From Candidatus Sulfotelmatobacter sp. (GTDB taxonomy: Bacteria > Acidobacteriota > Terriglobia > Terriglobales > Acidobacteriaceae): a stretch of DNA of 64,000 bases. The notes beneath the pieces are model-generated. The model saw only the letters and a program-made list of their open reading frames with translations. It was not told where the DNA came from and did no database searches. Made by a program: the position numbers and the translations under genes. Where the stretch lies: NCBI GenBank assembly GCA_049513475.1, contig JBEKWC010000011.1:45664-109663 (forward strand). Direction: 5' to 3'. This document shows positions 13,559-54,355 of the stretch, piece by piece; the stretch's first letter is position 1; each line of letters opens with the position of its first letter.

Positions 13559-13631
13559 GATGAGGCGCCCGCAGACATCAATGAAGTAGATATCCTTCAA
13601 TTGCTCGATGACAGATCGCTGCGAGAACTTC

Positions 13632-39917: not shown

Positions 39918-40045
39918 TGTGTTTGCCGTCCTGGAATCCGGATCGCGACGGCAGCGACCGGCATGATCATTCTGAAAGATATCAGAATCATCGATGCAAA
40001 GGAGAGCCGGACGACTGGGGTTTCGCAGTCGCGGATCGAATGTCA

Positions 40046-40633
40046 CTAGGGCACGGTAACCACGAGAGCGGTGCAGGGTTGGCTGCCTTCGCGCTGATAG
40101 CTGTGATGCTGGCTGGAATCGAAGTAAATGGAATCGCCGCTTTCCAGTTGATATTCTTCCATGCCGATCTTCAGGTTGAGCGTGCCCTTCAGCAAGCAGA
40201 GAAATTCTACGCCGGGATGGCTGTGGGTTTTCAACTTCTCCTTGGCGATGGGCTGAAAATCGGCCTGGTAGGCGCTGAGCTTTTTCTCGGTCGCGGGGTA
40301 ATCGAGGCTTTCGAAGAAATAGGAAACGTCGGAGGTGCCGGGACGCTCCGGAAATCGTCGCCGGTCTTTTTTGCGTACGATGGCGACCACGTGGCGTTTG
40401 CGTTCGTCGGTGAAAAAGTATTCCAGGCCGACTCCGAAGACCATCGCAATCCGCAACAGCGTGGGCAGAGTCGGATAGAGCTTGCTGCGTTCGAGCTTGG
40501 ACAACAAGGCTGCCGATAGTCCGGTGTGCTTTCCCAATTCCACCAACCCCATGCTCTTCTTCAGCCGGAGGGCGCGGAGTTTTTCTCCGATCGAGTAGGG
40601 TTTTAATGCGCTAACAATATTGTCGGATAACAA
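40046..40633 (-). CDS. XRE-family HTH regulator with a C-terminal cupin domain
   Basis: IGEKLRALRLKKSMGLVELGKHTGLSAALLSKLER (HTH_3) followed by a cupin region (HSHPGVEFLCLLKG...GDSIYFDS..HH). Confidence 0.8.
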   Translation of the reverse strand: MLSDNIVSALKPYSIGEKLRALRLKKSMGLVELGKHTGLSAALLSKLERSKLYPTLPTLLRIAMVFGVGLEYFFTDERKRHVVAIVRKKDRRRFPERPGTSDVSYFFESLDYPATEKKLSAYQADFQPIAKEKLKTHSHPGVEFLCLLKGTLNLKIGMEEYQLESGDSIYFDSSQHHSYQREGSQPCTALVVTVP

Positions 40634-40687
40634 GCGATGCTCCCCTCATTTTTGCGTAACAGTAGTGAGTCTTTTGACTTCTTTTTT

Positions 40688-41737
40688 CTAAACAGCTAGT
40701 GCCCGGCGGGGCATTAGACAGCAATCTGCCGGACAAACGTCCGGGCGCGCTGCCAGGCCGCCAAGAGCGAGTCTTGGGCTACTCTCGTCCAGACGCTCAC
40801 CGATCAACTCGCGGACCATGCGAACGAAGCGGGGGTGCGTCCCCACGGTCTCGGCGCGTACCATGTTCAACCCCAACTCGGAACAGAGTTCGCGCGCCTG
40901 TGTATCCAGGTCGAAGAGGATTTCCATGTGATCGGAAACGAAGCCAATCGGCGCGATTACAACATCGGACGTTTTTCCGCGAGTGTTGAAATCGCGCAGG
41001 TAGTCAACGATGTCCGGCTCCAGCCAGGGCTCTGAGGCGGGCCCACTCCGGCTCTGATAGACGAGTTTCCAGTCCCGATGTCCCAATGCGTGCGCGACCA
41101 GGCGACCGGTCTCCTGGAGCTGAACTTCGTAGTCGCAGCCTTGCGCCATGCCGAGAGGAATGCTGTGCGCGGTGTAGATCAGATGAGCCGCCTCGCGCCG
41201 ATCCGATGGAAGCCGGTCGAGCGCTTGCCGCACGCGATCGGCGAGGGCCGCAATAAATCCGGGATGATTGTGGAATACGCGGATCTTGTCGATGACCGGC
41301 GCGCCCTCGCCGGCAGCGGCCTGCGCGTGCGCGATATTCTCGCGGTATTGGCGGCAACTGGAGTACGAGCTGTAGGCGGAAGTGACGAAGGCCAGCGCGC
41401 GGCTCACGCCATCGGCTTTCATCTGGCGCAGAGTGTCGGCGAGCAGGGGATGCCAGTTCCGGTTTCCCCAATAGATGGGCAGGCGGGGCCCGTACTGGAT
41501 GAGTTCGGCGTTCAGCGCCGCGATGAACTGCCGGTTCTGGCCGTTGATCGGACTCTTCCCGCCGAAGTGGTAGTAGTGCTCCGCAACTTTGAGCAGGCGC
41601 TCGCGAGGCACATTTTTTCCACGCAGCACGTTCTCGAGGAACGGCATCACGTCCGCGGGCTTTTCGGGTCCGCCAAAAGAGATCACCAGAATTGCGTCGT
41701 AGTTCATGCCGTTTTCAAAGTGGTTCGACTCATTCAT
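40688..41737 (-). CDS. hemH: Ferrochelatase
   Basis: 349 aa. ILVISFGGPE, YTAHSIP and the conserved C-terminal acidic/His region. The start overlaps the bcp stop by 4 nt (ATGA). Confidence 0.88.
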   Translation of the reverse strand: MNESNHFENGMNYDAILVISFGGPEKPADVMPFLENVLRGKNVPRERLLKVAEHYYHFGGKSPINGQNRQFIAALNAELIQYGPRLPIYWGNRNWHPLLADTLRQMKADGVSRALAFVTSAYSSYSSCRQYRENIAHAQAAAGEGAPVIDKIRVFHNHPGFIAALADRVRQALDRLPSDRREAAHLIYTAHSIPLGMAQGCDYEVQLQETGRLVAHALGHRDWKLVYQSRSGPASEPWLEPDIVDYLRDFNTRGKTSDVVIAPIGFVSDHMEILFDLDTQARELCSELGLNMVRAETVGTHPRFVRMVRELIGERLDESSPRLALGGLAARPDVCPADCCLMPRRALAV

Positions 41738-42294
41738 TGCGGGGCTGGGATTTGCTTCTGCAAGTCGGTCAAGGCGGACAACACTTCCGCGCTGTGCTGA
41801 CTGGGATTGACCTCCGTGAATACCTTTACGATCTTGCCGTCCGGATCGACGATGAAGGTATGCCGGGCGGCGAATTTCACCAAACCCAGATTCGTCAGAG
41901 AACCGTATGCGCTGGAAACTTTATGATCGGTGTCGGCGAGCAGTTTGAAGTTCAATCCTTCTTTGGTGCAGAACTGCTGGTGAGAAGCGGCGCTGTCGAC
42001 GCTGACGCCCAGAACGACCACATTCCTCTGCTGATATTGCGCCTGGTCGCGCTGAAAGTTGTGCGCCTCGATGGTGCAGCCGCTGGTGAAGTCTCTGGGG
42101 TAGAAGTATAGGACCACCCATTTGCCGCGATAATCCTTGAGGCTGACCGGCGCACCTTCCTGCGAGGTGAGCGTGAATTCGGGCGCGGTCGCGCCCACTT
42201 GCGGCGTAGACGCTGCCAACAACGTAACCGGCAAGGCTGCGATCGCAAGCAGCGAACCAAGCAATAGCCGACGAACCGCGCCTGGTCGCGTCAT
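41734..42294 (-). CDS. bcp: Secreted Bcp/PrxQ-type thiol peroxidase
   Basis: ATG at 42294 gives a signal peptide. Active site YFYPRDFTSGCTIEA. The start overlaps the upstream methyltransferase stop by 4 nt. Confidence 0.85.
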   Translation of the reverse strand: MTRPGAVRRLLLGSLLAIAALPVTLLAASTPQVGATAPEFTLTSQEGAPVSLKDYRGKWVVLYFYPRDFTSGCTIEAHNFQRDQAQYQQRNVVVLGVSVDSAASHQQFCTKEGLNFKLLADTDHKVSSAYGSLTNLGLVKFAARHTFIVDPDGKIVKVFTEVNPSQHSAEVLSALTDLQKQIPAPQ

Positions 42295-43556
42295 CGAGAT
42301 TCCTGCTGCCATGGGGTCTCCGTTTCCGGCTCGTGGATTGCCATCCATCTGTTGCCGGCGGTCGCTTTGCCGAGCACGAGCTGGACATCGCCGATATAGC
42401 GCTCGCGGAATGCACCCTCGCAGTAGGCCAGGTAGTAATCCCACATGCGCATGAAGCGTTCGTCGAAGCCCAGGGGACGCACGTCACCGAGGTGGGCCAG
42501 AAAGCGGCGCCGCCATTCGTTCAAGGTGAGCGCGTAATGCATGCCGATATCTTCCAGGTGGAACAGTTGCATGCCGGTGGCGCGGGCCAGCGAGCGTTGA
42601 ATCTCGACCACGGAAGCCAGTTCTGCGCCGGGGAATATGTATTTCTTGATCCAGTCGCTCTGTTTTTTATATTGCTGAAACTTCGCTTCCCGAATGGTGA
42701 TGGTTTGCAGCAACATGTTGCCATCCGGTTTCAGTAGGCGATCGCAGGCTTCGAAGTAATCGTCGTAGTGTTCGTGGCCTATGGCTTCGAACATTTCGAT
42801 GCTCACGATCTTGTCGTACTGGCCGGTGAGGTTGCGGTAGTCATCGAAGAGCAATTCGATCCGTTCGCCAGCGCGGCTGCGCGCGAATACTTCCCGGGCA
42901 TAATCGTGCTGCTGCCGGCTGATCGTGGTGGTGGCGATACGGCAGCCGTAGGCTTCGGCAGCATAGGCGGCGAAGCCTCCCCAGCCGGTGCCGATTTCGA
43001 GAACGTGGTCGTTGGGAGCTAACTCAAGTTTGCGGCAGATGCGATCAAACTTGCGAAGTTGGGCGCGCTCGAGCGTATCGTCCGCGCTCTCGTAGTAGGC
43101 GCAGGAGTAGGCGAGATTGCGATCCAGGAAAAGGCGATAGAAGTCGTTGCCCAGATCGTAGTGATACGCGATGTTGCGCCGACTGCCGGAGTGAGTGTTG
43201 CGGTGGCGGCGATGCTGCAGGAAATCGAGGAATCTACGCAACGCGGTGAAGAGGCGGTTGCCGTTTTCCAGTTGGTTGAGGTTTCGTACGGCGAGGCGAA
43301 CCACGGCGACCAAGTCGGGAGTGGACCATTCGCCTTCCATGTAGGCCTCGCCGACTCCGATGTCGCCAGCGAACAAGGCGCGCTGGAAGAAACGGTCGTC
43401 GTGCACGGCTACGATCGCGTGCAAGGAGTCCTTCGGTTCCGGCTGGCCTAACTCGCCAAAGCTGTACGTCGCTTCCGGACAAACGATGTCGAGGCAGCCC
43501 ACGTGCAAGCCTGACAGACTCCTCAGGAAGATTTTCTTGGCCAGAGTCGTAGTCAT
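42291..43556 (-). CDS. cfa: Cyclopropane-fatty-acyl-phospholipid synthase-family SAM methyltransferase
   Basis: SAM motif VLEIGTGWGGFA and CFA-synthase-like flanking blocks. ATG at 43556, 2 nt after the DUF1365 stop. Confidence 0.85.
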   Translation of the reverse strand: MTTTLAKKIFLRSLSGLHVGCLDIVCPEATYSFGELGQPEPKDSLHAIVAVHDDRFFQRALFAGDIGVGEAYMEGEWSTPDLVAVVRLAVRNLNQLENGNRLFTALRRFLDFLQHRRHRNTHSGSRRNIAYHYDLGNDFYRLFLDRNLAYSCAYYESADDTLERAQLRKFDRICRKLELAPNDHVLEIGTGWGGFAAYAAEAYGCRIATTTISRQQHDYAREVFARSRAGERIELLFDDYRNLTGQYDKIVSIEMFEAIGHEHYDDYFEACDRLLKPDGNMLLQTITIREAKFQQYKKQSDWIKKYIFPGAELASVVEIQRSLARATGMQLFHLEDIGMHYALTLNEWRRRFLAHLGDVRPLGFDERFMRMWDYYLAYCEGAFRERYIGDVQLVLGKATAGNRWMAIHEPETETPWQQESR

Positions 43557-43558
43557 CT

Positions 43559-44356
43559 TTATTCCGCTCGCCATGAGGCCCCCCAATGCTGCGCAGTGGC
43601 GCGTTCAAAATGGCCCTTTCCCGGATGCGGTACGACCGGGACTTTCTTCAGGAACAGCCGCAACGCTTGCCAGTGAATGGCGGCGATCACTTTTGCCGTC
43701 ACCCAAGGGAAGCGCAGCAGCGCGGTGTGCAGGTCACGCGGCGTCCATTCGCGGCGTTCCAGTTTGAGCGTGGAATCGAAAATCTCGCGTCCGCCTTCAT
43801 AGCTCACGCTCTCGGTAATCAGGCGCTCGCGGGGCGAAGTAAAGGTCCAATCGTATTCGTGACCAAGCTTCATGAAGGGCGATACGTGGAACGTCTTGGC
43901 GAAACGGTAGTGCTTGTTCTCACTCCTAGGGTGGTCGGCCGTATGCGTCAGCCAGTAGTTCTCGGTTTCTCCGAAGGTGTTGTTCACCTCGGCCACGATC
44001 GCTTGCAGCTTGTCTGCCAGGTCGTAACAGTAATAGAACGAGACCGGGTTGAAGTTATAGCCAAGGTAGCGGAGATGCGTGAGCAGGAAGATTTGTCCTC
44101 GGGGAAGTTCAGCGTTGTGCTGCTGGGCATCGCGGAGCAGTCTTTCGCGCAAACCCTTTTGCGGATCTCCGAAGTGATCGCGATCATGGTATGAAACCCA
44201 GTTCCAACGGTTGTAAGCAGCGAGCGGCGAGACCTTCATCAGCTCGGGCAAGCGATCGATGTCGAGAAAGGCCATGAACAGCGGATATGTAAACTCATGG
44301 CGAGCAGGGAAGAACCTGCGATGACGCAAGGTTCCGGAATAGATTGCGGATTCCAT
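43559..44356 (-). CDS. DUF1365 family protein
   Basis: MESAIYSGTLRHRRFFPARHEFTYPLFMAFLDIDRL is the characteristic DUF1365 N-terminus. The start overlaps the upstream stop (TGATG). Confidence 0.8.
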   Translation of the reverse strand: MESAIYSGTLRHRRFFPARHEFTYPLFMAFLDIDRLPELMKVSPLAAYNRWNWVSYHDRDHFGDPQKGLRERLLRDAQQHNAELPRGQIFLLTHLRYLGYNFNPVSFYYCYDLADKLQAIVAEVNNTFGETENYWLTHTADHPRSENKHYRFAKTFHVSPFMKLGHEYDWTFTSPRERLITESVSYEGGREIFDSTLKLERREWTPRDLHTALLRFPWVTAKVIAAIHWQALRLFLKKVPVVPHPGKGHFERATAQHWGASWRAE

Positions 44357-45630
44357 CAGGCCTCCGCCACTTTCGCCACCACTTGCCACGACGCGCCTAG
44401 CCGATCGGCGACGCGGATCGCGGAATTCAATCCATCTTCGTGAAAGCCGTAGAACCAGTATGCACCACAAAAGTGCGCGCGATTGCGGCCGCTGATCTCC
44501 TGCCAGCGCGCCTGCGAGCGCACCGCCTCCAGCGTGTAAAGAGGGTGAAAGTAAGCCATCTCCCGCAGAATCTTTTTTTCTTCGAGGGATGGAGTGTCGT
44601 TGAGAGTGACGCAGTAATCTTCGGCGGTGGGCAGGCTCTGCAGGCGGTTCATGTGATACGTGAGCGTCGCCCGGTGGCGCCTGGCGCCGAGGTGATAATT
44701 CCACGAGGCGCGCGCCCGCGGCCGGCGGGGCAACAGGCGCGAATCCGTATGAAGCACGGTTTCGTTGCGGCTGGTGCGGAAGCCGGAGAGGACCTGTTTC
44801 TCGAGCGGCGACGCGTCTTTTAGCAGTTGTAAAGTTTGCGGCGCGTGACAGGCGAACACGACTTCATCGAAGTGTTCGGGGGCACGGTCTTGGAAAGAAA
44901 TTTCCACTCCTGACGGTGTGCGGATCACTCCGTCCACCTTTGCCGCCAAGCGAATTCGTTTCTGGTACGGCGCGGTAAGAGGTGGAATATAAGTCCGGCT
45001 GCCGCCTTGCAGCACGTACCACGGCGGGGCCGAAGTGAGGCCAAGCAATCCGTGATTCTCAAGAAAACGAATCAGGGTAAAGGCGGGGAAGTCTTCGATC
45101 TCCTCCGGCGAAGTGGACCACACCGCCGCGGCCATGGGATGCAGGTAGTAGCGCGCGAAGTCGCCGCGAAATTGATGCGCTTGTAGATAGTCCCGCAAGG
45201 TGAGGCCGGCGCCGGCTGGATCGTGCAGCAGTTGGCGAGCTTCGCGATGAAAGCGCACGATCTCGGCAAAGAAGCGATAGTGCGCGGGACGAAACCAGTT
45301 GCGATTGCCGGCGAAAAATCCGGCGATCCCGCGGCTGCTGTATTCAAATCCGGTTTCGCGGCAGCAAACTCCGAACGACATGTCGCTCGGTTGCCGGGCC
45401 ACGCCCAACGTCCGAAAGAGCCGCACCAGATTCGGATAAGTACGATCGTTGTGCACCATGAAACCGGTATCGATGGGCAGCACGCCGCGGCTGGTTTCAA
45501 TTTCGTGGGTGTGCGTGTGGCCACCGAGACGTTCGTCTTTTTCGAACAGCCACACTTCGTGTTTCTGGCTAAGCAAGTAAGCGGCCGCCATTCCCGAGAT
45601 GCCCGAGCCAATCACGGCGATGCGACTCAT
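44356..45630 (-). CDS. NAD(P)/FAD-dependent oxidoreductase (amine-oxidase-like, COG2907 type)
   Basis: IAVIGSGISGMAAAYLL...LFEKDERLGGHT dinucleotide-binding fold. 424 aa. ATGA overlap with the desaturase stop. Confidence 0.85.
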   Translation of the reverse strand: MSRIAVIGSGISGMAAAYLLSQKHEVWLFEKDERLGGHTHTHEIETSRGVLPIDTGFMVHNDRTYPNLVRLFRTLGVARQPSDMSFGVCCRETGFEYSSRGIAGFFAGNRNWFRPAHYRFFAEIVRFHREARQLLHDPAGAGLTLRDYLQAHQFRGDFARYYLHPMAAAVWSTSPEEIEDFPAFTLIRFLENHGLLGLTSAPPWYVLQGGSRTYIPPLTAPYQKRIRLAAKVDGVIRTPSGVEISFQDRAPEHFDEVVFACHAPQTLQLLKDASPLEKQVLSGFRTSRNETVLHTDSRLLPRRPRARASWNYHLGARRHRATLTYHMNRLQSLPTAEDYCVTLNDTPSLEEKKILREMAYFHPLYTLEAVRSQARWQEISGRNRAHFCGAYWFYGFHEDGLNSAIRVADRLGASWQVVAKVAEA

Positions 45631-46451
45631 GCGGCGCTTCCCTCGGCTAGGTCCGACAGGCGGATGCCGCGCAGATCGCGAGCGATGCCAACCTTACTCA
45701 GGAAACACAGCATGTAATACGTGAGATCCACTTCCCACCAGCGAATCCCCTGCTGGCAGGCATACATAAATTTGTGGTGATTGTTGTGCCAGCCCTCTCC
45801 CAGGGTGATCAGCGCCAGAACAAAATTGTTGCGGCTGTCGTCGGGAGTGTCGAAGCGCCGCGAGCCCCAGAGATGCGCCACCGAATTGATGGTGAAGGTG
45901 CCGTGAAAAAGAAGCACCGTCGAAGTCACGAATCCCCAGACGAACGCGCCCGGCCCGCCAATCAGCAGCAGCGCGCTCCCCAGAACTAGCGGCGGCACGA
46001 GATAATGCCGGTCGAGCCAGCGGAGTTCGGGAAACTTGCCAAAATCCTGGATTAGCGCAGGATCGTACCTGTCATATTGATTCGACAGAACCCAGCCGAC
46101 ATGCGCCCACCAGAAGCCGCGCGTCAAGGGAGAGTGGATATCCGGATCGTGGTCGGCATGGCGGTGATGAACGCGATGGTGTGCGGCCCACCACAGCACA
46201 CCTTTTTGCCCCGAGGTCTCGGCCAGAAAGGCCATCAGAAATTGCCAGCCGCGGCCCAGCTTGTAAGCGCGATGGCTGAAGTAACGGTGGTAGCCGGCGG
46301 TGATGCCAAACATGCGCACCGCATACATCGCCACCATGAGGCCAACCCAGTACCACCGAAACGGAACGAACAAAATGGCGCAACAGGCCGCGTGCAACAG
46401 CACGAAAGGGATGACCGTCCCGAAACTGTAGTGGTGAAGTCGATGGATCAC
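45627..46451 (-). CDS. Membrane acyl-lipid/acyl-CoA desaturase (delta-9-like)
   Basis: Three His boxes: HRYFSH, HRVHHRHAD and HNNHH. GTG start at 46451. Confidence 0.85.
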   Translation of the reverse strand: MIHRLHHYSFGTVIPFVLLHAACCAILFVPFRWYWVGLMVAMYAVRMFGITAGYHRYFSHRAYKLGRGWQFLMAFLAETSGQKGVLWWAAHHRVHHRHADHDPDIHSPLTRGFWWAHVGWVLSNQYDRYDPALIQDFGKFPELRWLDRHYLVPPLVLGSALLLIGGPGAFVWGFVTSTVLLFHGTFTINSVAHLWGSRRFDTPDDSRNNFVLALITLGEGWHNNHHKFMYACQQGIRWWEVDLTYYMLCFLSKVGIARDLRGIRLSDLAEGSAA

Positions 46452-46564
46452 AAGATTTCCTGGCCTCTTGGGCTGCGGACTCAGAATTGAGAATCTCTCT
46501 TCGCTAGTACGCTGCGAATCCGGGCGCCGGATTGCCTCTGATACGTTGTATCAATCCGTTGCCT

Positions 46565-46600
46565 ATTTGTCAAGGCTTTGTCCATGACAAATATTTGACA
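46565..46600. promoter_or_regulatory. Candidate CarH/LitR operator in the divergent promoter region
   Basis: ATTTGTCA (46565-72), TTTGTCCA (46577-84), TGACAAAT (46585-92) and ATTTGACA (46593-600). ACA triplets recur at 11-bp phasing on both strands. Overlaps TTGACA-N17-TACCAT (plus strand) and TTGACA-N17-TACAAC (minus strand). Confidence 0.5.
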
Positions 46601-46629
46601 CATTAGAATGCGGCTGCTACCATGCCCGG

Positions 46630-47547
46630 GTGCCTGCCTCCTATCCGATCAGCGCAGTGGCCAAGCTCACCGGCCTTCCGCTCGACACCCTGCGAGCATG
46701 GGAGCGGCGCTACCAGACGGTGGTTCCAAAGCGCGTGGCGCGCGGGCGACTGTATTCCGAAGCCCAGATCAAGCGGCTCGTTCTTTTGCGGCGAGCGGTG
46801 GAACACGGCCACGCCATTGGACAGATCGCCAGCTTAGGAGATCGGCAACTGCGCGAACTTCTTGAACGAAGTTCGTCGATCCGGGAGGAAGCGCCGACTG
46901 CGAAAGCGGCTTACTCGCAAGCCGCCCTCGCCCCGGTGCTGCGTGCTCTGGAGCGCTTCGACTACGCCGCGACCGACCGCGAGATCAACCGCCTGGCGGC
47001 GACCATGGCGAGTCCTAGAAATTTTGTTCACCAGGCCGCTCTGCCTTTGATGCGGATCGTCGGCGAGCGCTGGCACGAGGGCAAGTGCAGCATTGCGCAG
47101 GAGCACATGCTGACCAATCTGCTCAGCGGCCTGCTTTCTTCGCTGGTGAGAACCTACTCGCCCTCGAACCCGCCGGTGCGGGTATTGCTGGCCACGCCGC
47201 GCAATGAGCGTCATGCATTTCCTACGCTGGCCGCGGCCATGCTGACGGCCGTGGGGGGGCTGGGCGTCATTTATTTGGGCACGGAGCTGCCAGCGGCGGA
47301 TATCGTACTCGCGGCGCGAAAGAGTGAAGCCGATGTGGTTTTGCTCAGCTTGAGCGCCACACCGGTTGGGGATGTTCTGGAAGATCTCAATCAGGTTGAG
47401 CGCAAGACTCCACGTTCCACCGGCCTTTGGCTGGGCGGGGCGCCGGAACTGAAACTCGCCGAGGCGGTGCAAGGCTCCCGCTGGGTGGTGCTGGATGATT
47501 TCTCCGCCTTGGAGCATCAATTGGCTGCGCTGGGAGCGAGGTTCTAA
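46630..47547 (+). CDS. MerR-family regulator with a C-terminal B12-binding domain (CarH/LitR-like photoreceptor candidate)
   Basis: MerR HTH (ISAVAKLTGLPLDTLRAWERRY). W-x9-EH motif (WHEGKCSIAQEH) and, 36 residues later, E-x-H (NERHAF), followed by a Rossmann-like segment LLATP...VVLLSLS. GTG start. Confidence 0.75.
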   Translation: MPASYPISAVAKLTGLPLDTLRAWERRYQTVVPKRVARGRLYSEAQIKRLVLLRRAVEHGHAIGQIASLGDRQLRELLERSSSIREEAPTAKAAYSQAALAPVLRALERFDYAATDREINRLAATMASPRNFVHQAALPLMRIVGERWHEGKCSIAQEHMLTNLLSGLLSSLVRTYSPSNPPVRVLLATPRNERHAFPTLAAAMLTAVGGLGVIYLGTELPAADIVLAARKSEADVVLLSLSATPVGDVLEDLNQVERKTPRSTGLWLGGAPELKLAEAVQGSRWVVLDDFSALEHQLAALGARF

Positions 47548-47607
47548 CGGAAGGGTCGGAGCAATCCGCAGGCGTGTTATAGACGTACTTAAGTGTGGGC
47601 GCGAGGG

Positions 47608-47955
47608 ATGGAGATTATGAGAGTGTTCCTAAAGTTGATCTTCGCCGGTATTTTTATTTGGATGGTGGGCATGACCACTTATGTGAGCCTGCACAAACCG
47701 GTCTGGCTGGCGGGTTCGGAATTCAGTTGGGCGGGTAGTCCTTGGGCGGTGGCGACACTCTTTGACGCTTACTTCGGCTTCGTGACATTTTTCGTGTGGG
47801 TGTGCTTCAAAGAGCGAAGCCTTTGGGCCAAGATAATTTGGTTCCTGCTGATCATGGGGTTGGGAAACATCGCGATGTCCGGTTACGTTCTGCTTCAGCT
47901 TTTCAAAGTGAAACAAGATGAGCCGCTTTCAAGCGTGCTGTACAAAACCGCATGA
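47608..47955 (+). CDS. DUF1475-like small membrane protein (start may be 47617)
   Basis: Four hydrophobic helices. WAVATLFDAYFGFVTFFVWV pattern. Confidence 0.6.
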   Translation: MEIMRVFLKLIFAGIFIWMVGMTTYVSLHKPVWLAGSEFSWAGSPWAVATLFDAYFGFVTFFVWVCFKERSLWAKIIWFLLIMGLGNIAMSGYVLLQLFKVKQDEPLSSVLYKTA

Positions 47956-48448
47956 GGAGTGGATTTTTTTGTATCGCAAGGTAATCGCGCCGGTGGTTAC
48001 TCTGCTTACGCAGGGAATCACGCCGGAGAAGATTGCCCTGAGCCTCGCGTTTGGGATTGTGCTGGGAGTCTTTCCGGTGCTGGGTTCGACGAGCATTCTC
48101 TGCGCGCTGGCGGCTGTGACTTTTCAATTGAACCTGCCGGCCATCCAGTTGGTGAATTATCTGGCGTATCCCCTGCAATTGATCTTGCTGATACCTTTCA
48201 TGCGGCTGGGCGAGATGTTGTTTCACGCCGCGCCGCTGCAGCTTTCGCTGGCGCAGATGTTGGCCATGGCCCACGCTAACTTGCCGCAAGCCATGGCAAA
48301 GCTTTGGCTGGCGGCGGTGCATGCCATGTCCGCATGGCTGTTGATCGGTCCCCCGATAATTGTTCTGCTTTATTTTTCTCTGGCGGTTGCGCTACGCCGT
48401 CTGGCGGCGTCCACGGTCCTGCGCCACAAGACCAGCGAGGTGGTCTGA
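47918..48448 (+). CDS. DUF2062-like membrane protein
   Basis: GITPEKIALSLAFGIVLGVFPVLGSTSILCALAAVTFQLNLPAIQLVNYL. Overlaps the preceding gene by 38 nt. Confidence 0.6.
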   Translation: MSRFQACCTKPHEEWIFLYRKVIAPVVTLLTQGITPEKIALSLAFGIVLGVFPVLGSTSILCALAAVTFQLNLPAIQLVNYLAYPLQLILLIPFMRLGEMLFHAAPLQLSLAQMLAMAHANLPQAMAKLWLAAVHAMSAWLLIGPPIIVLLYFSLAVALRRLAASTVLRHKTSEVV

Positions 48449-48454
48449 TCGGGC

Positions 48455-49255
48455 ATGCTGGCTGAGGTTCTCCATCTCGTTCTGCTGGGCGCGGCCTTGG
48501 TGCTCGCGATGATGTTTTTGTTGTGGCTCCTTCATCTGCGTACCGGCAACGCCAGCATCGTCGATCCCGGCTGGGCGTTTGGCCTGCCGCTTCTGGCCGT
48601 GACCTACGCCGTGCTGGGTTCCGGTTATTCGTGGCGGAGATGGCTGCTGGCGGCAATGGCCTTGGCATGGGGAGTAAGGCTCGGGACCCACCTGCTGCTG
48701 CGCATTGCCGGCAAGCCGGAAGAAGGCCGTTATCAGGAACTACGCCGGCAGTGGAAGAATCATTTGGCGCTGAAATTCCTGGCGTTTTTCGAATTCCAGG
48801 CGTTGCTGGATTTATTTCTTTCGCTGCCTTTCCTGCTGGCCGGGGTCAATCGAGCGCCGGCATTGTCGCCATTGGAATATGGGGGATTTGCCCTTTGGCT
48901 GCTGGCGCTGGCAGGGGAGGCGACGGCCGACGCGCAGTTGGCCGCCTTCAAACGCGATTCCTCCACGCACGGGCAAGTGTGCCAGCGCGGCTTGTGGAAT
49001 TATTCCCGGCATCCGAATTATTTTTTTGAGTGGCTGGTCTGGCTGGCGTGGGCTTTATTCGCGCTGGCTTCGCCTTACGGCTGGGTCGCGCTTCTGTGCC
49101 CGGCGCTGATGTTTTATTTTCTTTTCCGAGTGACCGGCATTCCCGCGACCGAAGCCCAGGCCCTGCGCAGCAAGGGCGACGCCTATCGCCGTTACCAGCA
49201 GACGACAAGCGCTTTCCTACCCTGGTTTCGGAAGCAGGGTTACACTTTTTTCTGA
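48455..49255 (+). CDS. DUF1295 / steroid-5-alpha-reductase-like membrane protein
   Basis: Multi-TM. C-terminal [21 protein letters not shown] motif. Confidence 0.75.
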
Positions 49256-49278
49256 TTCGCGCATTTTGGCTAAAGAAG

Positions 49279-50403
49279 ATGACAACCGCCGCACAACTCG
49301 AGCGTCAACCCGTTGCCAGTTCGACTTCGTGGTCGCTAAATTTGTTGGAGCGGGATTGTTTGCCGGACTGGCTCATTCGATGGGGCATCCGGCGACTCTT
49401 GCTGCGGCGTTTGCGGGAGGAAGATAAAGGGTCGCCGGAGCTGCAGCAAGCTCACCGGATGCAGTGGATCGGACGGTTGAAGAGCGGGCCGGTAGCGCTC
49501 GAGACCGCGGCAGCGAACGCTCAGCACTACGAGGTTGCCGCGCGTTTTTTTGAGTTGGTATTGGGCAGGCGGATGAAATACAGTTGCGCACTCTGGCGCG
49601 AGGGCACGCGCTCGTTAGATGAAGCCGAAGAAGCCATGCTGGCGCTTACAGTGGAGCGTGCCGAGGTCGCCGACGGCCAAAGGATCTTAGAATTAGGCTG
49701 CGGCTGGGGATCGTTGTCGCTTTATCTCGCGGAGCGTTTTCGGAATTGCCAGGTGGTCAGCGTATCCAATTCAGCCTCTCAAAAACAATTTATCGACGCG
49801 CAAGCCGCGAGCCGCAGGCTGAACAATCTGGAAGTGATCACCGCGGACATGAACGTCTTTGGGGCTCCCGGCAAGTTTGACCGCGTGATTTCGGTAGAGA
49901 TGTTCGAACACATGCGCAACTACGAAGTGTTGCTGGCGCGTATCGCCACTTGGATGAAGCCCGAAGCCAAGCTCTTCGTTCATATTTTCAGTCACTCGCG
50001 ATTCGCTTATCCCTTCGAGGTGCGGACTCAAGCGCCGGATACGCTTGTGGAAGACGACGGGGACTGGATGGCGCGGCATTTCTTTACCGGCGGCATTATG
50101 CCAAGCGACGATTTGCTGTTGTATTTCCAGCGCGATTTGCGCGTGCTGCGGCATTGGCGGGTCGACGGCATTCATTATCGCAATACATCGGAGGCGTGGC
50201 TGCGCAACCTCGATTTGCATCGCGAAGAGGTTCTCGATCTTTTCGCGCGAACCTACGCGGCCGAGCTTTCGGGCAAGCAAAGGCAGTCCGAAGCTTTGCG
50301 CTGGCTGATGCGCTGGCGCGTATTTTTCCTGGCCTGCGCTGGGCTTTGGGGGTACAGACGCGGCAGCGAGTGGATTGTCTCTCACTATCTCTTCGCGAAG
50401 TGA
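49279..50403 (+). CDS. Second CFA-synthase-like SAM-dependent methyltransferase
   Basis: ATG at 49279. [22 protein letters not shown] and SAM motif [12 protein letters not shown]. Confidence 0.8.
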
Positions 50404-50555
50404 GAGCTGCTTTTTCTGATCATGCACGACCCGAGCCTTGAGTTTTCCGCACAGGCAAACAAGCTGACGAATCACCGCGGTTACCGGTGACTCCGCTACT
50501 CCCCGAGCTTCTAACTAAGAGACGTAACGTAGATTCCGCGAAGTAAGGAGATTCA

Positions 50556-50972
50556 ATGAAAAGCTTAGTGTTGGTTTGCTTTGCCATGATCGCCGCTGCG
50601 CCAGGCGCCTGTGCCCAGCAAGCCGCGAATGACAATCGGCCGGAGACGGTGCATCAGGATACGGGTCTGCGAACGGTGGAGGGTTGCCTCTCGAAGACGG
50701 CTGGAACCTACGTGATCACCGGCGGCGCGCCGGGCGGAAAGCAGTTCCGCATTACTTCGGGCGACGTTTCAACGCTTAAGGGCAAGATTGGCTACACCGT
50801 CAAAGTTGTGGGTGTCGTAAATAGGAATGATGCCTTGGCCAACCAGAACGAAATCTACAACGAAGGAACGACTACCGGCGTCGGGTATCTTACCATCGAT
50901 GCCCAGAAGGTCAAGATCGTCCACGGAAATTGCAGCGAGGCCGGCAAAGAATGGGCCGGCGATCACGAGTAA
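50556..50972 (+). CDS. Small secreted hypothetical protein
   Basis: AAGGAG RBS. Signal peptide MKSLVLVCFAMIAAAPGACA. 138 aa. Confidence 0.6.
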   Translation: MKSLVLVCFAMIAAAPGACAQQAANDNRPETVHQDTGLRTVEGCLSKTAGTYVITGGAPGGKQFRITSGDVSTLKGKIGYTVKVVGVVNRNDALANQNEIYNEGTTTGVGYLTIDAQKVKIVHGNCSEAGKEWAGDHE

Positions 50973-51041
50973 GTCCAAATAGGTCGGGACTCGTTTGCGA
51001 AGAGCGCGGCGGTAAACATTGGCAAGTCGTCTTTCGAAGAA

Positions 51042-52706
51042 TTACTGCGCCGCGCTCTTGAACCGAATGTGAAAAGCGTAAGCGTTCTTACCTGGGGCCT
51101 GCGCCGGAAGGTGAATGTGCAAGCCGTCGGCCTGCTGTTCGAACTGAAGTCTGGCATCGCCCCCGAGTAAGTCGACGGACTCGATCCTCTGGCCGCCTAC
51201 AGAGGCTCCTAAAGCATGGATGACCGCTTCTCCATTCGCTGGCCAAGCTAGTTCAATGGCATAAAGAGTGCCGTCTTTGGTCGTGAAGCGGAAGTCTTGA
51301 TCGGTATAAGTTGCCGTATCGGTGTCGTGAAAAGACCCGGCAGTCACATGAGTAGGTCCTTCACCGTAGACCCTCCAAGGGCGGGTTCCGTAGATTGCCT
51401 CGCCATTCGCCTTCAGCCACGAACCCACATCGCGAAGCACCTGCTGTACCTCGTCAGGAATCGTGCCATCAGAACGCGGACCTATGTTGAGTAACAGGTT
51501 GCCATTCTTGCTGACGATGTCGATGAGTTGGTGAATTACAAAGTCCGGCGACTTGAAGGTATCGTTCTTTATATATCCCCAGGACTTGTCGCTTACCGAA
51601 GTATCGGTCTGCCAGTGTTGCGGGCGGATATCAGCCAACTGGCCGCGCTCCACGTCGAGAACAGCGGAGTGCTCCTGCATGGCGAAGTCTTTATAGTTAA
51701 TAACTCCGACATGGTCGCCATACTGCAGCGACGCGTTGTAGTAGAAAGCGGCGAAGCGCGTGAGGTTGGCGCGAATCGAAGGCTGGCCGACCCACCAATC
51801 GAAATACATAACGTCGGGATGATATTTTTCGACGATCTCGGAGGCGCGGGCGAGCCAGTCGTCCGCCCACGCCGAAGAGACAGAAGTGAAATCGTTGGAA
51901 ACTGGAGTGCTGTTCCCGGCTTCGAGCCAGACATGAGCCGGGCCGTAGAACGCAGCGTAGTGGGGATCGTTGATGTCGGAAGAAATGTCGCGGCCCACAC
52001 CCAGAAAGAAATCGTGCTCCACGCGGTGGGAAGAGGCGCCGAAGTGAAGCCCCTCGGCCCGCACCGCCTTGGCCAGGTCGCCTACGATATCGCGCTGCGG
52101 GCCCATCTTGGCGGCGGTCCAGTCGCTTAAACCGCTGTCATACATCGCGAAACCGTCGTGGTGTTCGGCGACCGGCACGACGTACTTGATACCCGCTTCT
52201 TTGAAGAGTCGTGCCCAGGCCGCGGGATCGAAGCGCTCGGCCTTGAACATGGGAATGAAGTCTTTATAGCCGAACTTATCCGGCGGGCCGTACGTCGCGA
52301 TGTGGTGCTTGTGCTCTTCGCTAGTCGGGCGATACATGTTTCTGGGATACCATTCATCGCCAAACGCCGGAACGGAATAAATTCCCCAGTGAATGAAGAC
52401 GCCAAACTTGGCGTCTTGATACCACGCGGGAGCTTCGTACTTCTGCAGCGATTGCCAATCGGGACGAAATGGACCCTGACGACCGACGCGATCCACGTCG
52501 TTAAGTATGGCAGTACGCGGGCCATCGTACTTAGAACTCGCCTTCTGCCAGATTTGATCGATGGCCGCGGGGTCTTCCGATGCGGTAGGAGCGGTGGGCG
52601 AAGCGGGAACCTGCGCCTGCAGGCCCAAGGTCAGAGCCGCCAAAAAGAACGCCAAGCCTGCCATCCGGACTCGTTCGGTACATATTGCTGCGTTCAGCGA
52701 AAACAT
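51042..52706 (-). CDS. Alpha-L-fucosidase (GH29), secreted
   Basis: WYQDAKFGVFIHWGIYSVPAFGDEWY and following GH29 blocks. Signal peptide. Confidence 0.85.
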   Translation of the reverse strand: MFSLNAAICTERVRMAGLAFFLAALTLGLQAQVPASPTAPTASEDPAAIDQIWQKASSKYDGPRTAILNDVDRVGRQGPFRPDWQSLQKYEAPAWYQDAKFGVFIHWGIYSVPAFGDEWYPRNMYRPTSEEHKHHIATYGPPDKFGYKDFIPMFKAERFDPAAWARLFKEAGIKYVVPVAEHHDGFAMYDSGLSDWTAAKMGPQRDIVGDLAKAVRAEGLHFGASSHRVEHDFFLGVGRDISSDINDPHYAAFYGPAHVWLEAGNSTPVSNDFTSVSSAWADDWLARASEIVEKYHPDVMYFDWWVGQPSIRANLTRFAAFYYNASLQYGDHVGVINYKDFAMQEHSAVLDVERGQLADIRPQHWQTDTSVSDKSWGYIKNDTFKSPDFVIHQLIDIVSKNGNLLLNIGPRSDGTIPDEVQQVLRDVGSWLKANGEAIYGTRPWRVYGEGPTHVTAGSFHDTDTATYTDQDFRFTTKDGTLYAIELAWPANGEAVIHALGASVGGQRIESVDLLGGDARLQFEQQADGLHIHLPAQAPGKNAYAFHIRFKSAAQ

Positions 52707-52940
52707 AGGATCGGAATCCTTTATTGTGTGCGGCAGTTCTCAGCCGACATACGCATGCCAACCAGCAACTGCGCGGGAGATATTTGGCGGGTCAATAATA
52801 CATGTCCTGCTGGGTCCGGTCTAACGGAGTCACGGGCGCGTCTCGAAAACAATAGGATCGGTTTACAATGGCGGGGTTCGAAGCGGCTTGCGCATGCTAA
52901 TCGCAAAGCCCGAAGTGGAGAGCAAAGAAAGATAGCGAAC

Positions 52941-54332
52941 ATGCTGATTCATCGCGATTATCTTTTTCCTGCCGAGCCCACCGTGCGAAAGATCGCCCGT
53001 TCGTTGTATGAGCGAGTGCGGGGGTTGCCCATTGTCAGTCCGCACGGTCATACGCAGGCCTCCTGGTTTGCGAGGAACGAACCCTTCCCCGATCCGGCAA
53101 AGCTATTCGTGCAGCCCGATCATTACATTTATCGCATGCTGTACAGCCAGGGGATTTCGATGGAGGAGCTCGAGATCGGGCAGCCTGAGCTGAAGAATCC
53201 GCGAAGAGTGTGGTACATTTTTGCGCGCAATTACTATTTGTTCCGCGGAACGCCGACGCGCCTGTGGCTGGATTTTGCCTTCGAGGAACTATTCGGGCTG
53301 GAGCGCCGACTTTCAGAAGAGACTGCCGATCTGTACTTCGATACGATTTCCGACAAATTGCGCACGCCGGAGTTTCTGCCGCGCGCACTCTACGAACGCT
53401 TTCGTTTGGAAGTGCTGGCCACGACCGATTCGCCGCTCGATTCGCTGGCTGATCACAAGGCGATTCGAGAGTCGAAGTGGAAGGCAAGAATTTTACCGAC
53501 GTTCCGGCCTGATTCGGTGGTCGATCCGGAGTTCTTCGGATTCGCTTCGAATCTCGCAAAACTTGGGCGGAACACCGGGGAAGATACTTACACTTGGACG
53601 GGCTATTTGAACGCGCTGCGGAAAACGCGCGCCCGCTTCGGCGAATTGGGATGCACTGCAACCGATCACGGTCATCCAACGGCGCAAACCGCAAGTCTTT
53701 CTTCAGCGGAAGCTGCCGATTTGTTCCGCAAGGTGCTCGAGGGCACGGCGGACACGCCGCAGCAAGAACTCTTCCGTGCGCAGATGCTGACCGAGATGGC
53801 GCGCATGAGTGTGGAAGATGGCTTGGTCATGCAGATTCATCCCGGGAGCGCGCGCAATCACAATCGGAAGATTTATGGAAAGTATGGGCGCGATGTCGGC
53901 GCCGACATTCCGAGGCCCACGAATTACGTGGACGCGCTGCGTCCGCTGCTGGATAAGTTTGGCAATGAGCCCGGGCTCACGATCATACTTTTCACGCTGG
54001 ACGAATCGACTTACAGCCGCGAACTGGCGCCGCTTGCCGGACATTACCCGTGCTTGCGTTTGGGGCCGCCGTGGTGGTTTCACGATAGTCCAGAGGGCAT
54101 GATGCGCTTCCGCCAACTGGTAACGGAGACTGCCGGGTTTTACAACACCGTGGGATTTAATGATGACACGCGGGCATTCCTTTCGATCCCGGCGAGGCAC
54201 GATGTGGCGCGGCGGGTGGATTGCGCATTCCTCGCGCGACTGGTCGCCGAGCATCGACTGGAGGAGGAAGAAGCTTCGGAAGTGGCGCACGACCTGGCTT
54301 ACCGGTTAGTAAAACAAAGCTACAAGCTGTAA
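52941..54332 (+). CDS. uxaC: Glucuronate isomerase
   Basis: ATG at 52941. LPIVSPHGHT, and a length of 463 aa typical of UxaC. The track ORF start at 52158 is antisense to the fucosidase gene. Confidence 0.88.
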   Translation: MLIHRDYLFPAEPTVRKIARSLYERVRGLPIVSPHGHTQASWFARNEPFPDPAKLFVQPDHYIYRMLYSQGISMEELEIGQPELKNPRRVWYIFARNYYLFRGTPTRLWLDFAFEELFGLERRLSEETADLYFDTISDKLRTPEFLPRALYERFRLEVLATTDSPLDSLADHKAIRESKWKARILPTFRPDSVVDPEFFGFASNLAKLGRNTGEDTYTWTGYLNALRKTRARFGELGCTATDHGHPTAQTASLSSAEAADLFRKVLEGTADTPQQELFRAQMLTEMARMSVEDGLVMQIHPGSARNHNRKIYGKYGRDVGADIPRPTNYVDALRPLLDKFGNEPGLTIILFTLDESTYSRELAPLAGHYPCLRLGPPWWFHDSPEGMMRFRQLVTETAGFYNTVGFNDDTRAFLSIPARHDVARRVDCAFLARLVAEHRLEEEEASEVAHDLAYRLVKQSYKL

Positions 54333-54355
54333 CCTCCGCAAATTGGCGAACTGAC

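Follow-up and report, generated by a model that had tools for sequence, protein, structure and literature searches.

What does a regulator of the cobalamin type control when it stands between two divergent gene strings for lipid modification, peroxide defence and haem synthesis? The question is raised by positions 40688-50403 of a 64-kb stretch of DNA from Candidatus Sulfotelmatobacter sp. (the window, all 64,000 nucleotides of it). We read this region, with a probability of roughly 0.55, as a light-controlled photo-oxidative-stress locus in which a CarH-type repressor governs two divergent operons for furan-fatty-acid (FuFA) synthesis and the removal of peroxide and porphyrin. The operons probably serve to make furan fatty acids as scavengers of singlet oxygen, to destroy peroxide and to use up photosensitising porphyrin. 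Each part is of a known kind, and a photo-oxidative-stress role of the effector module has already been described under sigmaE-ChrR and under the non-B12 LitR classes; the combination, like its symmetric control site, is previously undescribed. An earlier note on this DNA had suggested a light-switched regulon for lipid remodelling and antioxidant defence. Those elements of the suggestion that sequence could test have held and been refined, and light control itself is something we infer.

The regulator (46630-47547, plus strand) is, by sequence and modelled fold, a CarH/LitR class I homologue, with a MerR winged helix-turn-helix, a four-helix bundle containing Wx9EH and a Rossmann B12 domain. 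Profile searches, the B12-domain check proposed earlier, gave MerR_1, B12-binding_2 and B12-binding, although the 27.5 bits for PF02310 lie below its gathering score of 32.1; with the CarH model NF052513 the protein scored 96 bits, the cutoff being 400. The best sequence and fold matches were to Thermus CarH, as the label CarH-like had anticipated: phmmer aligned the protein with the TtCarH/LitR structures 3whp/5c8d (E 6e-23), and TtCarH made up all of the top 50 Foldseek matches of its AF2 model (pLDDT 84), with a TM of 0.80-0.85 and an rmsd of 2.6-3.4 Å for the cobalamin-binding domain. Both motifs read earlier from the letters, W-x9-EH (W148...E158-H159) and E-x-H (E193-R-H195), are present and align in phmmer with W131/E141/H142/H177 of TtCarH; the SignatureFinder element GxxH appears as NERH. 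Among 120 homologues (61-96% identity, 305 columns) only 41 columns are invariant, G145, E158, H159, H195 and G269 among them, and W148 and H149 are kept in 115 and 119 homologues, respectively. Computation thus finds the AdoCbl-contact residues conserved and identifies the domain and the fold; the protein may well bind AdoCbl (B12), and it and its locus may respond to light.

With the class I proteins of Thermus thermophilus (TTHB100), Myxococcus xanthus and Bacillus megaterium the regulator has in common the three-domain architecture and fold, the Wx9EH cap, the neighbouring His (H132 equivalent), the lower axial His and the recognition helix (...LRxWERRY...), although identity is only about 28-31%. 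A further difference is that the Gly of ExHxxG in class I CarH, found in 135 of 137 wider-family representatives, is Pro198 here and Pro in 119/120 close homologues. This near-universal Gly replaced by Pro, together with the PF02310 match under its gathering score, lends some weight to a CarA-like, B12-independent repressor, or to a protein that senses cobalamin availability or redox state and not light, whose inducer would be singlet oxygen, an antirepressor or a nearby XRE-cupin protein; elsewhere the same effector module answers singlet oxygen via sigmaE-ChrR, and an XRE-cupin regulator is recurrent near the locus. We consider this decidedly unlikely: CarA lacks Wx9EH (PMC8156234), whereas strong purifying selection acts here on Wx9EH, His195 and GG, the Trp/Glu/His cap specifically contacts the photolabile adenosyl group, and operator and neighbours are unchanged in those deeper relatives that carry the canonical Gly.

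The control site itself speaks for a CarH-type repressor. The divergent spacer of 178 bp contains one 34-bp operator-like element, TTGTCAAggctTTGTCCaTGACAaatatTTGACA (46567-46600, centre 46584), made up of four TnnACA CarH-type repeats with 11-bp spacing, two per strand, so that two pairs stand head to head (a 2+2 dyad). They match the CarH repeat nnnnTnnACAn; in Thermus, one such repeat overlaps the -35 box (PMC9304148). The element coincides with the stretch singled out in the earlier note (46565-46600), is unique in the 64-kb window (0.00 expected by chance) and occurs in exactly one copy in each of 40 related acidobacterial loci whose flanks have diverged, including a Vicinamibacterales locus at 43% identity. 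As in class I systems, the 11-bp TnnACA repeats include the -35 box; the Thermus and Bacillus CarH tetramers, however, bind three to four repeats in the same direction, whereas here the 2+2 repeats lie over two -35 boxes.

Each of the two divergent promoters has an outer repeat as its TTGACA -35 box. The predicted right promoter (46595-46623, plus strand; TTGACA, 17 nt, TG-n-TACCAT) is the best sigma-70-like match in 40000-51100, with 10/12 positions and an extended TG, and in a 39-sequence profile its -10 (TAnGAT) is conserved, as is its close spacing to the start codon. Since it ends 6 nt from the GTG of the regulator, the regulator mRNA is probably leaderless, unlike those of class I CarH systems. 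The predicted left promoter (46545-46573, minus strand) has its -35 TTGACA at 46573 to 46568 and, after 17 nt, its -10 TACAAC at 46550 to 46545; both boxes are conserved in the same profile, with a variable last -10 position, and the -10 box (TACAAn) is weak. That poor box, in a promoter predicted by eye only, is what would favour an operator that autoregulates the regulator transcript alone, the left arm being merely adjacent and constitutive or controlled elsewhere. Such an arrangement is highly improbable, given that the left outer repeat is a perfect minus-strand TTGACA, followed after 17 nt by a conserved TACAA, and that the divergent arrangement is kept in 37/37 scorable loci, whose regulators are 43-96% identical to that of the window. 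We take repression of both arms through this element as the presumable mode of control.

The eleven open reading frames and their Pfam families (including DUF1365, DUF1295, DUF1475 and DUF2062) agree with those listed earlier. The description as two tightly coupled operons applies to the left arm, where the junctions from the desaturase to HemH (ATGA, TGATG, a 2-nt gap, ATGA, ATGA) reproduce the 4-nt and 1-nt overlaps and the gap exactly, and not to the right arm, with gaps of about 69, 13, 6 and 23 nt. No terminators marking the operon ends were found.

The left operon (minus strand) begins with a membrane FA_desaturase (45627-46451; PF00487), by sequence a delta-9 SCD/DesC-type enzyme, with the His boxes HRYFSH, HHRVHH and HNNHH in its translation and mouse/human acyl-CoA desaturase 1 as the best PDB match (4ymk, E 2e-30). 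It is followed by an FAD oxidoreductase of the amine-oxidase/phytoene-desaturase kind (44356-45630; PF01593 and PF13450), with 42% full-length identity to that of the Ralstonia cluster, a DUF1365 protein (43559-44356; PF07103, 263 bits) and a CFA-synthase-family SAM methyltransferase (42291-43556; PF02353, 304 bits). The last shares 40-42% identity with the CFA genes in the photo-oxidative clusters of Ralstonia and Rhizobium, and its best NCBIfam model is CFA synthase (312 bits, cutoff 400). A bcp/prxQ thiol peroxidase gene (41734-42294; AhpC-TSA, 143 bits) has an ATGA overlap at either side; its product scores about 122 bits with the PrxQ/Bcp NCBIfam models, below their cutoffs, and has a signal-peptide-like N-terminus (MTRPGAVRRLLLGSLLAIAALPVTLLAAS). 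The last gene is hemH (40688-41737), for a ferrochelatase (PF00762, 297 bits; NF000689, 449 bits against a cutoff of 408).

UfaD (the FAD enzyme RSP1091), UfaO (the DUF1365 protein RSP1090), UfaM (a CFA-like methylase) and FufM were assigned by experiment in Rhodobacter and Rhodopseudomonas, and the UfaD/UfaO/UfaM assignment given in the earlier note was correct (PMC7380195). By family and gene order, the FAD oxidoreductase, the DUF1365 protein and the left methylase are candidates for UfaD, UfaO (O2-dependent furan ring formation) and UfaM; their order equals that of RPA2571-2570-2569 in R. palustris, and a second, divergent methylase is present here too.

That second methylase closes the right arm (plus strand). 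Next to the regulator lies a small membrane protein (47617-47955; PF07343, 45 bits) whose match to DUF1475 covers profile positions 161-230, only the C-terminal third of the Pfam model; in related contigs the gene is called at 112 aa. Then come a DUF2062 membrane protein (47969-48448; PF09835, 40 bits) with a TTG start and a GAGGAG ribosome-binding site, and a DUF1295 membrane protein of the steroid-5-alpha-reductase/ICMT kind (48455-49255; PF06966, 225 bits), 44% identical to its Ralstonia and 36% to its Rhizobium counterpart, where the gene lies directly 5' of a CFA2-like gene. The methylase itself (49279-50403; CMAS-like, 131 bits) matches 6gkv best in the PDB (E 4e-73, 250 bits), against 91 bits for the E. 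coli-type CFA synthase 6bqc. FufM shares 38% identity with AT4G33110 (PMC10940516), annotated as a putative coclaurine N-methyltransferase (PMC3388832); judged by sequence, the second methylase, like FufM, resembles coclaurine N-methyltransferases, which makes it a FufM candidate.

A light switch whose left arm makes some other lipid (cyclopropane, mid-chain methyl or methylene, or conjugated-diene chains, or modified acidobacterial iso-diabolic or ether lipids) appears unlikely. In its favour, sequence scores cannot tell apart the cyclopropane, methyl-olefin and methoxy synthases that the CMAS family includes, the extra delta-9 desaturase implies a substrate other than cis-vaccenate, and FuFA synthesis can dispense with three genes of the Rhodobacter operon. 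Two further points count against furan fatty acids: a delta-9 monoene, if accepted as a substrate at all, would lead to another positional isomer than a delta-11 one, and our literature search turned up no furan fatty acids reported from Acidobacteria. Against some other lipid, the triad in the same order has been shown by experiment to suffice for FuFA synthesis in R. palustris, a methylase of the FufM type lies in the same locus, and we know of no function for DUF1365 besides the one in furan-fatty-acid synthesis.

For the preferred furan-fatty-acid reading, we infer the lipid products and the roles of Bcp and HemH as follows. In the dark, the AdoCbl-loaded regulator would oligomerise and bind the 34-bp operator, repressing both operons, its own leaderless gene included, because both promoters have their -35 boxes under the four TnnACA repeats; light (UV, blue or green) would cleave the Co-C bond, the oligomer would disassemble and both promoters would open. 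The left-operon enzymes would then work in series on phospholipid acyl chains: the desaturase would provide a cis-monoene, the UfaM-like methylase would convert it to a methyl-branched trans-olefin, the UfaD-like enzyme would introduce a second double bond, and the UfaO-like protein would insert O2 and close the furan ring. The product would be a monomethyl furan fatty acid, a membrane scavenger of singlet oxygen and radicals, while an exported Bcp/PrxQ would reduce peroxides and the ferrochelatase would turn photosensitising (proto/copro)porphyrin into haem. The FufM-like methylase probably adds the second ring methyl, giving a dimethyl furan fatty acid; DUF1295 would be its constant partner, and the two further small membrane proteins are left without an assigned role.

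Class I CarH targets are carotenoid genes, whereas here they would be lipid-modification, peroxiredoxin and haem genes; the 64-kb window contains neither a photolyase nor a carotenoid gene. The five effector genes recur in Ralstonia and Rhizobium, next to MerR-type or ChrR/sigmaE regulators and photolyases. The light regulons of class II/III LitR (PplR1 and PmlR1/2 of Pseudomonas; Burkholderiales) resemble the locus in that a MerR/LitR repressor, acting through -35 occlusion, adjoins FAD oxidoreductase, DUF1365, CFA (ufaM), DUF1295 and CFA2 genes (30-47% identity), as on the Ralstonia wenshanensis megaplasmid CP076412 (MerR, FolE, FAD oxidoreductase, DUF1365, CFA, DUF1295, CFA-like, photolyases). 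Those regulators, however, are without a functional B12 Rossmann domain, sense light via a LOV partner or an unknown mechanism, align with ours in the HTH alone (43% over 76 residues) and use TGTACA-N12-TGTACA; their loci carry the photolyase, FolE and SDR genes missing here and lack the desaturase, Bcp, HemH, DUF1475 and DUF2062.

The Rhodobacter (Cereibacter) sphaeroides and Rhodopseudomonas palustris pathway (UfaM, UfaD, UfaO, FufM) shares its enzyme families with this locus, and the sigmaE-ChrR regulon serves in photo-oxidative stress, as this locus probably does. Control there lies with an ECF sigma and an anti-sigma answering singlet oxygen, and here presumably with a photoreceptor-type repressor; the surrounding 10 kb or so contain neither a sigmaE nor a ChrR gene, and the prepended delta-9 desaturase is a further difference. 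The family set recurs in the SAK1-dependent singlet-oxygen acclimation genes of Chlamydomonas, where the same effector families are singlet-oxygen-induced (PMC4067076), and in the Arabidopsis lipid-droplet proteins UFAM/UFAD1, UFAO1 and LIME1/FUFM1. The set co-induced or co-localised there comprises CFA1, CNMT-like CFA2, DUF1365, DUF1295 and DUF2177; the genes are eukaryotic, dispersed and of unrelated regulation, with products that are putative, as here.

Synteny, like the operator with its conservation and the family assignments, was established by computation; it bears out the proposed gene-neighbourhood conservation in related acidobacterial genomes. A near-universal core sets the regulator opposite the desaturase (34/39 related loci), the FAD oxidoreductase (36/37), DUF1365 (37/37) and the left CFA-like methylase, CFA1 (33/33); of the genes downstream of the regulator, DUF2062 (33/37) is the most constant. 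Bcp (19/32), HemH (13/31) and the DUF1475/DUF1295/second-methylase string are accessory, DUF1475 being present in 12/38 loci and most of the right arm in 10/31. The locus of a homologue with 47% identity keeps the full 11-gene layout without Bcp and HemH and with a photolyase-related gene. An XRE-cupin regulator recurs in the vicinity, and DUF2177 occurs in a sister variant of the locus.

Eleven genes, arranged as two divergent strings, make up the locus at 40688-50403. This agrees with an earlier note on this DNA, and all the gene families named there were upheld by Pfam and NCBIfam. The left arm, on the minus strand, begins with a fatty-acid desaturase (45627-46451), followed by an FAD oxidoreductase of the amine-oxidase/phytoene-desaturase-like kind (FADox, 44356-45630; PF01593 and PF13450), a DUF1365 protein (43559-44356; PF07103, 263 bits over the full profile length), a CMAS-family methyltransferase (CFA1, 42291-43556; 304 bits), an AhpC/TSA peroxiredoxin (Bcp/PrxQ, 41734-42294) and the ferrochelatase HemH (40688-41737; NF000689, 449 bits, above the cutoff). 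The right arm, on the plus strand, is headed by the regulator (46630-47547), with MerR, B12-binding_2 and B12-binding domains, and continues with a small protein (47617-47955) whose match to DUF1475 is confined to the last third of the profile, a DUF2062 protein (47969-48448), a DUF1295 protein (48455-49255; 225 bits) and a second, CMAS-like methyltransferase (CFA2, 49279-50403; 131 bits). The tight coupling that had been claimed for both strings held for the left arm, whose junctions (ATGA, TGATG, a 2-nt gap, ATGA and ATGA; the FADox and DUF1365 genes overlap by 1 nt) are those expected of classic translational coupling, but not for the right arm, where gaps of about 69, 13, 6 and 23 nt separate the genes. 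Intrinsic terminators that could mark the operon limits gave fewer candidates than expected by chance. The Rfam search of the window found no cobalamin riboswitch or other relevant RNA, only two tRNAs and the sRNA Acido-Lenti-1 (646-691, plus strand; 45 bits for a gathering score of 37), which fits the acidobacterial origin of the window.

The regulator has a MerR-type winged-helix domain (PF13411, 53.5 bits for a GA of 21.6), and its residues 4-70 align to the DNA-binding domain of Thermus thermophilus CarH (TtCarH), including WERRY, with the recognition helix ...LRAWERRY... common to the two proteins. The alignment to the T. thermophilus CarH/LitR structures (3whp, 5c8d) spans 240 residues of the regulator (E about 6e-23) and pairs its W148, E158, H159 and H195 with W131, E141, H142 and H177 of TtCarH. 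The Wx9EH motif is therefore present as W148-x9-E158-H159, and PF02607 matches with 46.7 bits. When an AlphaFold (AF2) model of the regulator (pLDDT 84) was compared with the PDB using Foldseek, the top 50 matches were all TtCarH/LitR (E down to 2e-17), and the cobalamin-binding domain superposed on that of TtCarH with a TM score of 0.80-0.85 and 2.6-3.4 A. The predicted overall fold is that of TtCarH, including the Rossmann domain. Among 120 homologues with 61-96% identity, 41 of 305 columns are invariant, including G145, E158, H159, H195 and G269, while W148 is found in 115 and H149 in 119 of them. This conservation of the AdoCbl-contact residues indicates that the contacts are under selection. 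The locus belongs to a Terriglobales/Acidobacteriaceae genome, and identical regulators appeared on peat and soil metagenome contigs and in one MAG.

Other profiles and motifs match the regulator less completely. PF02310 falls short of its GA (27.5 bits for 32.1), and the NCBIfam CarH equivalog NF052513 (TransRegCarH) gives 95.8 bits for a cutoff of 400; it is the top-scoring family all the same, but at this score the regulator does not count as an equivalog of the curated CarH proteins. The classic B12 motif, ExHxxG-x41-SxV/T-x22-27-GG (PMC8156234), is represented by E193-R-H195, S240 and GG269-270 with correct spacings (x41 and x26), and the departures are Pro198 in the place of the Gly and Ser242 in that of V/T. 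As for the light-responsive CBD signature of SignatureFinder (GxxW, EH, GxxH and GxxxP; PMC11796333), GERW and EH are present, GxxH reads N-E-R-H, with Asn in the first place in 97 of the 120 homologues, and GxxxP has no confident placement. Of the 120 close homologues 119 have Pro198, as do 35 of the 40 related genome loci; these 40 loci are all Acidobacteriota MAGs. In the wider family, 135 of the 137 representatives have Gly at this position, and so do deeper acidobacterial branches (Acidiferrales, Vicinamibacterales). Since these Gly-bearing relatives share the operator and the neighbours, we read Pro198 as a presumably tolerated clade-specific variant.

The divergent spacer, 178 bp long, contains at 46567-46600 the sequence TTGTCAAggctTTGTCCaTGACAaatatTTGACA, an operator-like element in which two pairs of TnnACA repeats with 11-bp spacing stand head to head around 46584 (TGGACA-n5-TTGACA on the minus strand and AtGACA-n5-TTGACA on the plus strand). 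Three of the four repeats are exact TnnACA and the fourth is AtgACA; both outer repeats are perfect TTGACA hexamers and are the -35 boxes. The repeat consensus of CarH is nnnnTnnACAn with the same 11-bp spacing, and one Thermus repeat includes the -35 box (PMC9304148). On the plus strand, TG-n-TACCAT comes 17 nt after TTGACA. This promoter, which scores best among the promoter-like matches in 11 kb, ends 6 nt 5' of the GTG start, which implies a leaderless mRNA for the regulator. On the minus strand, 17 nt separate TTGACA from TACAAC. Both predicted promoters look sigma-70/sigmaA-like, and as the four repeats cover both -35 boxes, one bound complex would occlude both promoters. In Cystobacter, each CarH dimer needs two tandem repeats (PMC9304148), so that the simplest geometry here would be two outward-facing head-to-tail dimers.

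The full operator pattern has no second copy in the 64-kb window (0.00 expected by chance). A PWM scan of the 40 genome loci gave a single site per locus, also for the Vicinamibacterales locus at 43% identity, and no additional site elsewhere in the 20 kb of each, so that no further regulon members can be named. Alignment of 39 distinct upstream regions on the dyad centre gave near-maximal information at the four repeats, less at the pair of -10 boxes and hardly any at other positions. A conserved upstream box, TTGTAyCAA, was considered as a fifth CarH repeat and ruled out because of its 21-nt spacing and the missing T of TnnACA; we read it as the putative -10 of the left promoter.

The enzymes of the left arm can be compared with the furan fatty acid (FuFA) pathway that Lemke et al. 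demonstrated in Rhodobacter and Rhodopseudomonas, in which the CFA-like methylase UfaM converts cis-vaccenate into 11-methyl-12-trans-18:1, the FAD phytoene-desaturase-like UfaD (RSP1091/RPA2571) adds a second double bond, the furan ring is formed with O2 by the DUF1365 protein UfaO (RSP1090/RPA2570) and a second methyl group is added by the divergent methylase FufM (RPA0924) (PMC7380195). The order FADox-DUF1365-CFA is that of RPA2571-2570-2569. FADox, which matches at the family level only and lies beside the DUF1365 gene, is a candidate UfaD, and the DUF1365 protein would, as such, fall within the definition of UfaO. CFA1 is a CMAS-family candidate for UfaM, although family membership does not fix its product, which could be a methyl-branched trans-olefin or a cyclopropane. 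The first gene of the arm encodes an SCD1-type delta-9 desaturase (4ymk, E 2e-30) with visible His boxes that would supply the cis-monoene substrate, and the operon could thus run from a saturated chain to the furan acid.

In the right arm, CFA2 resembles plant coclaurine N-methyltransferase (CNMT; 6gkv, 250 bits) far more closely than it does CFA synthase (91 bits). AT4G33110/LIME1 of Arabidopsis, which shares 38% identity with FufM (PMC10940516), is itself annotated as a putative coclaurine N-methyltransferase (PMC3388832), and through this plant homologue CFA2 is, indirectly, a FufM-type candidate. A DUF1295 gene is located directly 5' of a CFA2 homologue with 47% identity in two clusters, one on a Ralstonia megaplasmid (MerR, FolE, FADox, DUF1365, CFA, DUF1295, CFA2 and photolyases) and one on a Rhizobium plasmid (DUF1295-CFA2 with ChrR/sigmaE, DUF2177, lipocalin, TspO and FolE); a sequence search of the PDB with DUF1295 gave no match. 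In Chlamydomonas, CFA1, a CNMT-like CFA2, DUF1365, DUF1295 and DUF2177 are SAK1-dependent genes induced by singlet oxygen (PMC4067076). These occurrences mark the effector set as a widespread and already recognised photo-oxidative lipid module.

The N terminus of Bcp is signal-peptide-like. Porphyrins act as photosensitisers, and from this and the operon context we infer the roles of Bcp and HemH in light defence. HemH ends in a Cys-rich tail (40688-40760, minus strand; ...RPDVCPADCCLMPRR). Some bacterial ferrochelatases carry a 2Fe-2S cluster, and by analogy the tail may be the site of one.

The proteins of the window were compared by tblastn with the 40 loci, counting for each gene the loci whose contig reaches far enough. 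DUF1365 (37/37) and CFA1 (33/33) were present throughout, followed by FADox (36/37), the desaturase (34/39) and DUF2062 (33/37). Lower counts were obtained for Bcp (19/32), HemH (13/31), DUF1475 (12/38), DUF1295 of the window type (10/35) and CFA2 (10/31), and many loci have an alternative right arm with DUF2062, DUF2177 and a paralogous DUF1295. By this count, the regulator with its operator, the four lipid genes and DUF2062 form the conserved unit, and the peroxiredoxin, the ferrochelatase and the FufM-type module are accessory to it. Locus L051, with a regulator of 47% identity that carries the canonical Gly, shows the layout of the window apart from Bcp and HemH, with the right arm extended through 4-nt overlaps by a photolyase-related gene (PF04244, DPRP; 11861-13561) that is independent support for a light context. 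Among the B12-type CarH homologues inspected outside Acidobacteriota, none was found beside the FuFA module: representatives at 33-42% identity lie on short contigs or in unrelated contexts, and the homologues on plasmids of Comamonas, Eleftheria and Thermus are flanked by other genes. Within this small sample, only Acidobacteriota showed a class I regulator associated with the module. Plasmid homologues of DUF2062 (Leptospira, Emticicia) provided no informative context.

In the mechanism that we propose, the AdoCbl-bound regulator would sit on the dyad operator in the dark and repress both promoters, and in the light photolysis would free the operator so that both arms are transcribed. Furan fatty acids would then be assembled in the membrane phospholipids, peroxides would be removed by the exported peroxiredoxin and the ferrochelatase would shrink the photosensitising porphyrin pool. 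We place this full statement, a B12 light switch over two lipid-defence arms, slightly above even odds (roughly 0.55), the main risks being whether cobalamin is bound when Pro198 is present and what the lipid product is. The light-switched lipid and antioxidant regulon of the earlier note is supported as far as sequence analysis reaches. More tentatively, and with odds somewhat against it, a Terriglobales Pro-for-Gly CarH variant on a dyad 2+2 operator, probably as two outward-facing head-to-tail dimers, would gate the two divergent promoters and switch on a complete pathway from saturated chain to dimethyl-FuFA (delta-9 desaturase, UfaM, UfaD, UfaO and FufM/DUF1295) together with porphyrin removal by HemH.

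Class I B12 CarH proteins have been described as carotenoid regulators (PMC9304148, PMC8156234), and their operators in Thermus and Bacillus differ in orientation from the 2+2 inverted repeats found here (PMC9304148). Control of a ufaM/FAD-oxidoreductase cluster by a class II LitR has been published for Pseudomonas (PMC9758184), and LitR-family control of such a cluster is also evident in Burkholderiales annotation. The C-terminal region of LitR class II/III lacks the B12 Rossmann domain and the axial His, whereas the window regulator has the Rossmann domain and His195, and the LitR-type protein of Ralstonia can be aligned to it in the HTH only. The LitR class II/III operator, TGTACA-N12-TGTACA, is also different. 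As for control of the sigmaE-ChrR type, no sigma-70_r2/r4 or ChrR gene was present among the genes called from -10 kb to +10 kb. We found no paper tying Acidobacteria to CarH/LitR or to furan fatty acids, nor a described light response for them. What is new here is that a class I regulator is paired with the FuFA effector module, that the desaturase, Bcp, HemH, DUF1475 and DUF2062 are added to that module, that the operator is a 2+2 dyad spanning two -35 boxes and that the regulator is a Pro198 variant.

If the more tentative reading is true, this would be the first B12-photoreceptor regulon for membrane singlet-oxygen scavengers rather than carotenoids and, for Acidobacteriota, the first light response to be described; a route to the functions of DUF1295, DUF2062 and DUF1475 would open as well. 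The CarH class I regulon would be extended beyond carotenoids to a module hitherto linked only to sigmaE-ChrR and to non-B12 LitR, and the locus gathers into a single unit a candidate for the complete pathway that leads from saturated acyl chain to dimethyl furan fatty acid. It also places these three DUF families and DUF1365 in functional contexts that can be tested. Acidobacteria of peat and soil are abundant and poorly characterised, and with a B12-dependent switch their membrane chemistry would depend on light exposure and on the supply of corrinoids. The 34-bp dyad operator over two promoters is a compact natural bidirectional design that could serve optogenetic tools, and the change from Gly to Pro in the B12 loop, shared across the clade, amounts to a natural experiment on how cobalamin is bound.

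Several other genes were observed in or near these loci. Downstream of CFA2, the gene at 50556-50972 (plus strand) encodes a 138-aa protein that carries a signal peptide and matches no Pfam family; it has homologues (69-70% identity) also 3' of CFA2 in two related loci (L032, near 7513, and L033, near 14400) and may belong to the right arm. Farther to the right (51042-57436), an alpha-L-fucosidase, a glucuronate isomerase, an MFS sugar transporter and a GH28 protein represent ordinary plant-polysaccharide utilisation, with no relation to the locus. At the other end, 54 nt downstream of hemH and on the same strand, there is an XRE-HTH and cupin regulator (40046-40633, minus strand). Its homologues (68-89% identity) recur near the locus at varying positions (L015 near 13091, L019 near 2756, L030/L048 at 12424-13077 and L038 near 2303), and part of the module may be under this protein as a second regulator. 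The L048 homologue stands divergent to a DUF2177-DUF1295 pair, a sister variant of the right arm (L047 11619-12781, L048 13235-14397) in which the DUF2177 gene overlaps that of a paralogous DUF1295, 33-36% identical to the one in the window; such a pair is also reported beside heliorhodopsins (bioRxiv 10.1101/2021.02.16.431466). Finally, fasciclin-domain genes adjoin more distant B12-MerR homologues (L053 8103-10019, L056 8415-8873), in one case on a metagenome contig and in the other on a plasmid of Eleftheria terrae, and a fasciclin-like gene is induced by singlet oxygen in Chlamydomonas (PMC4067076).
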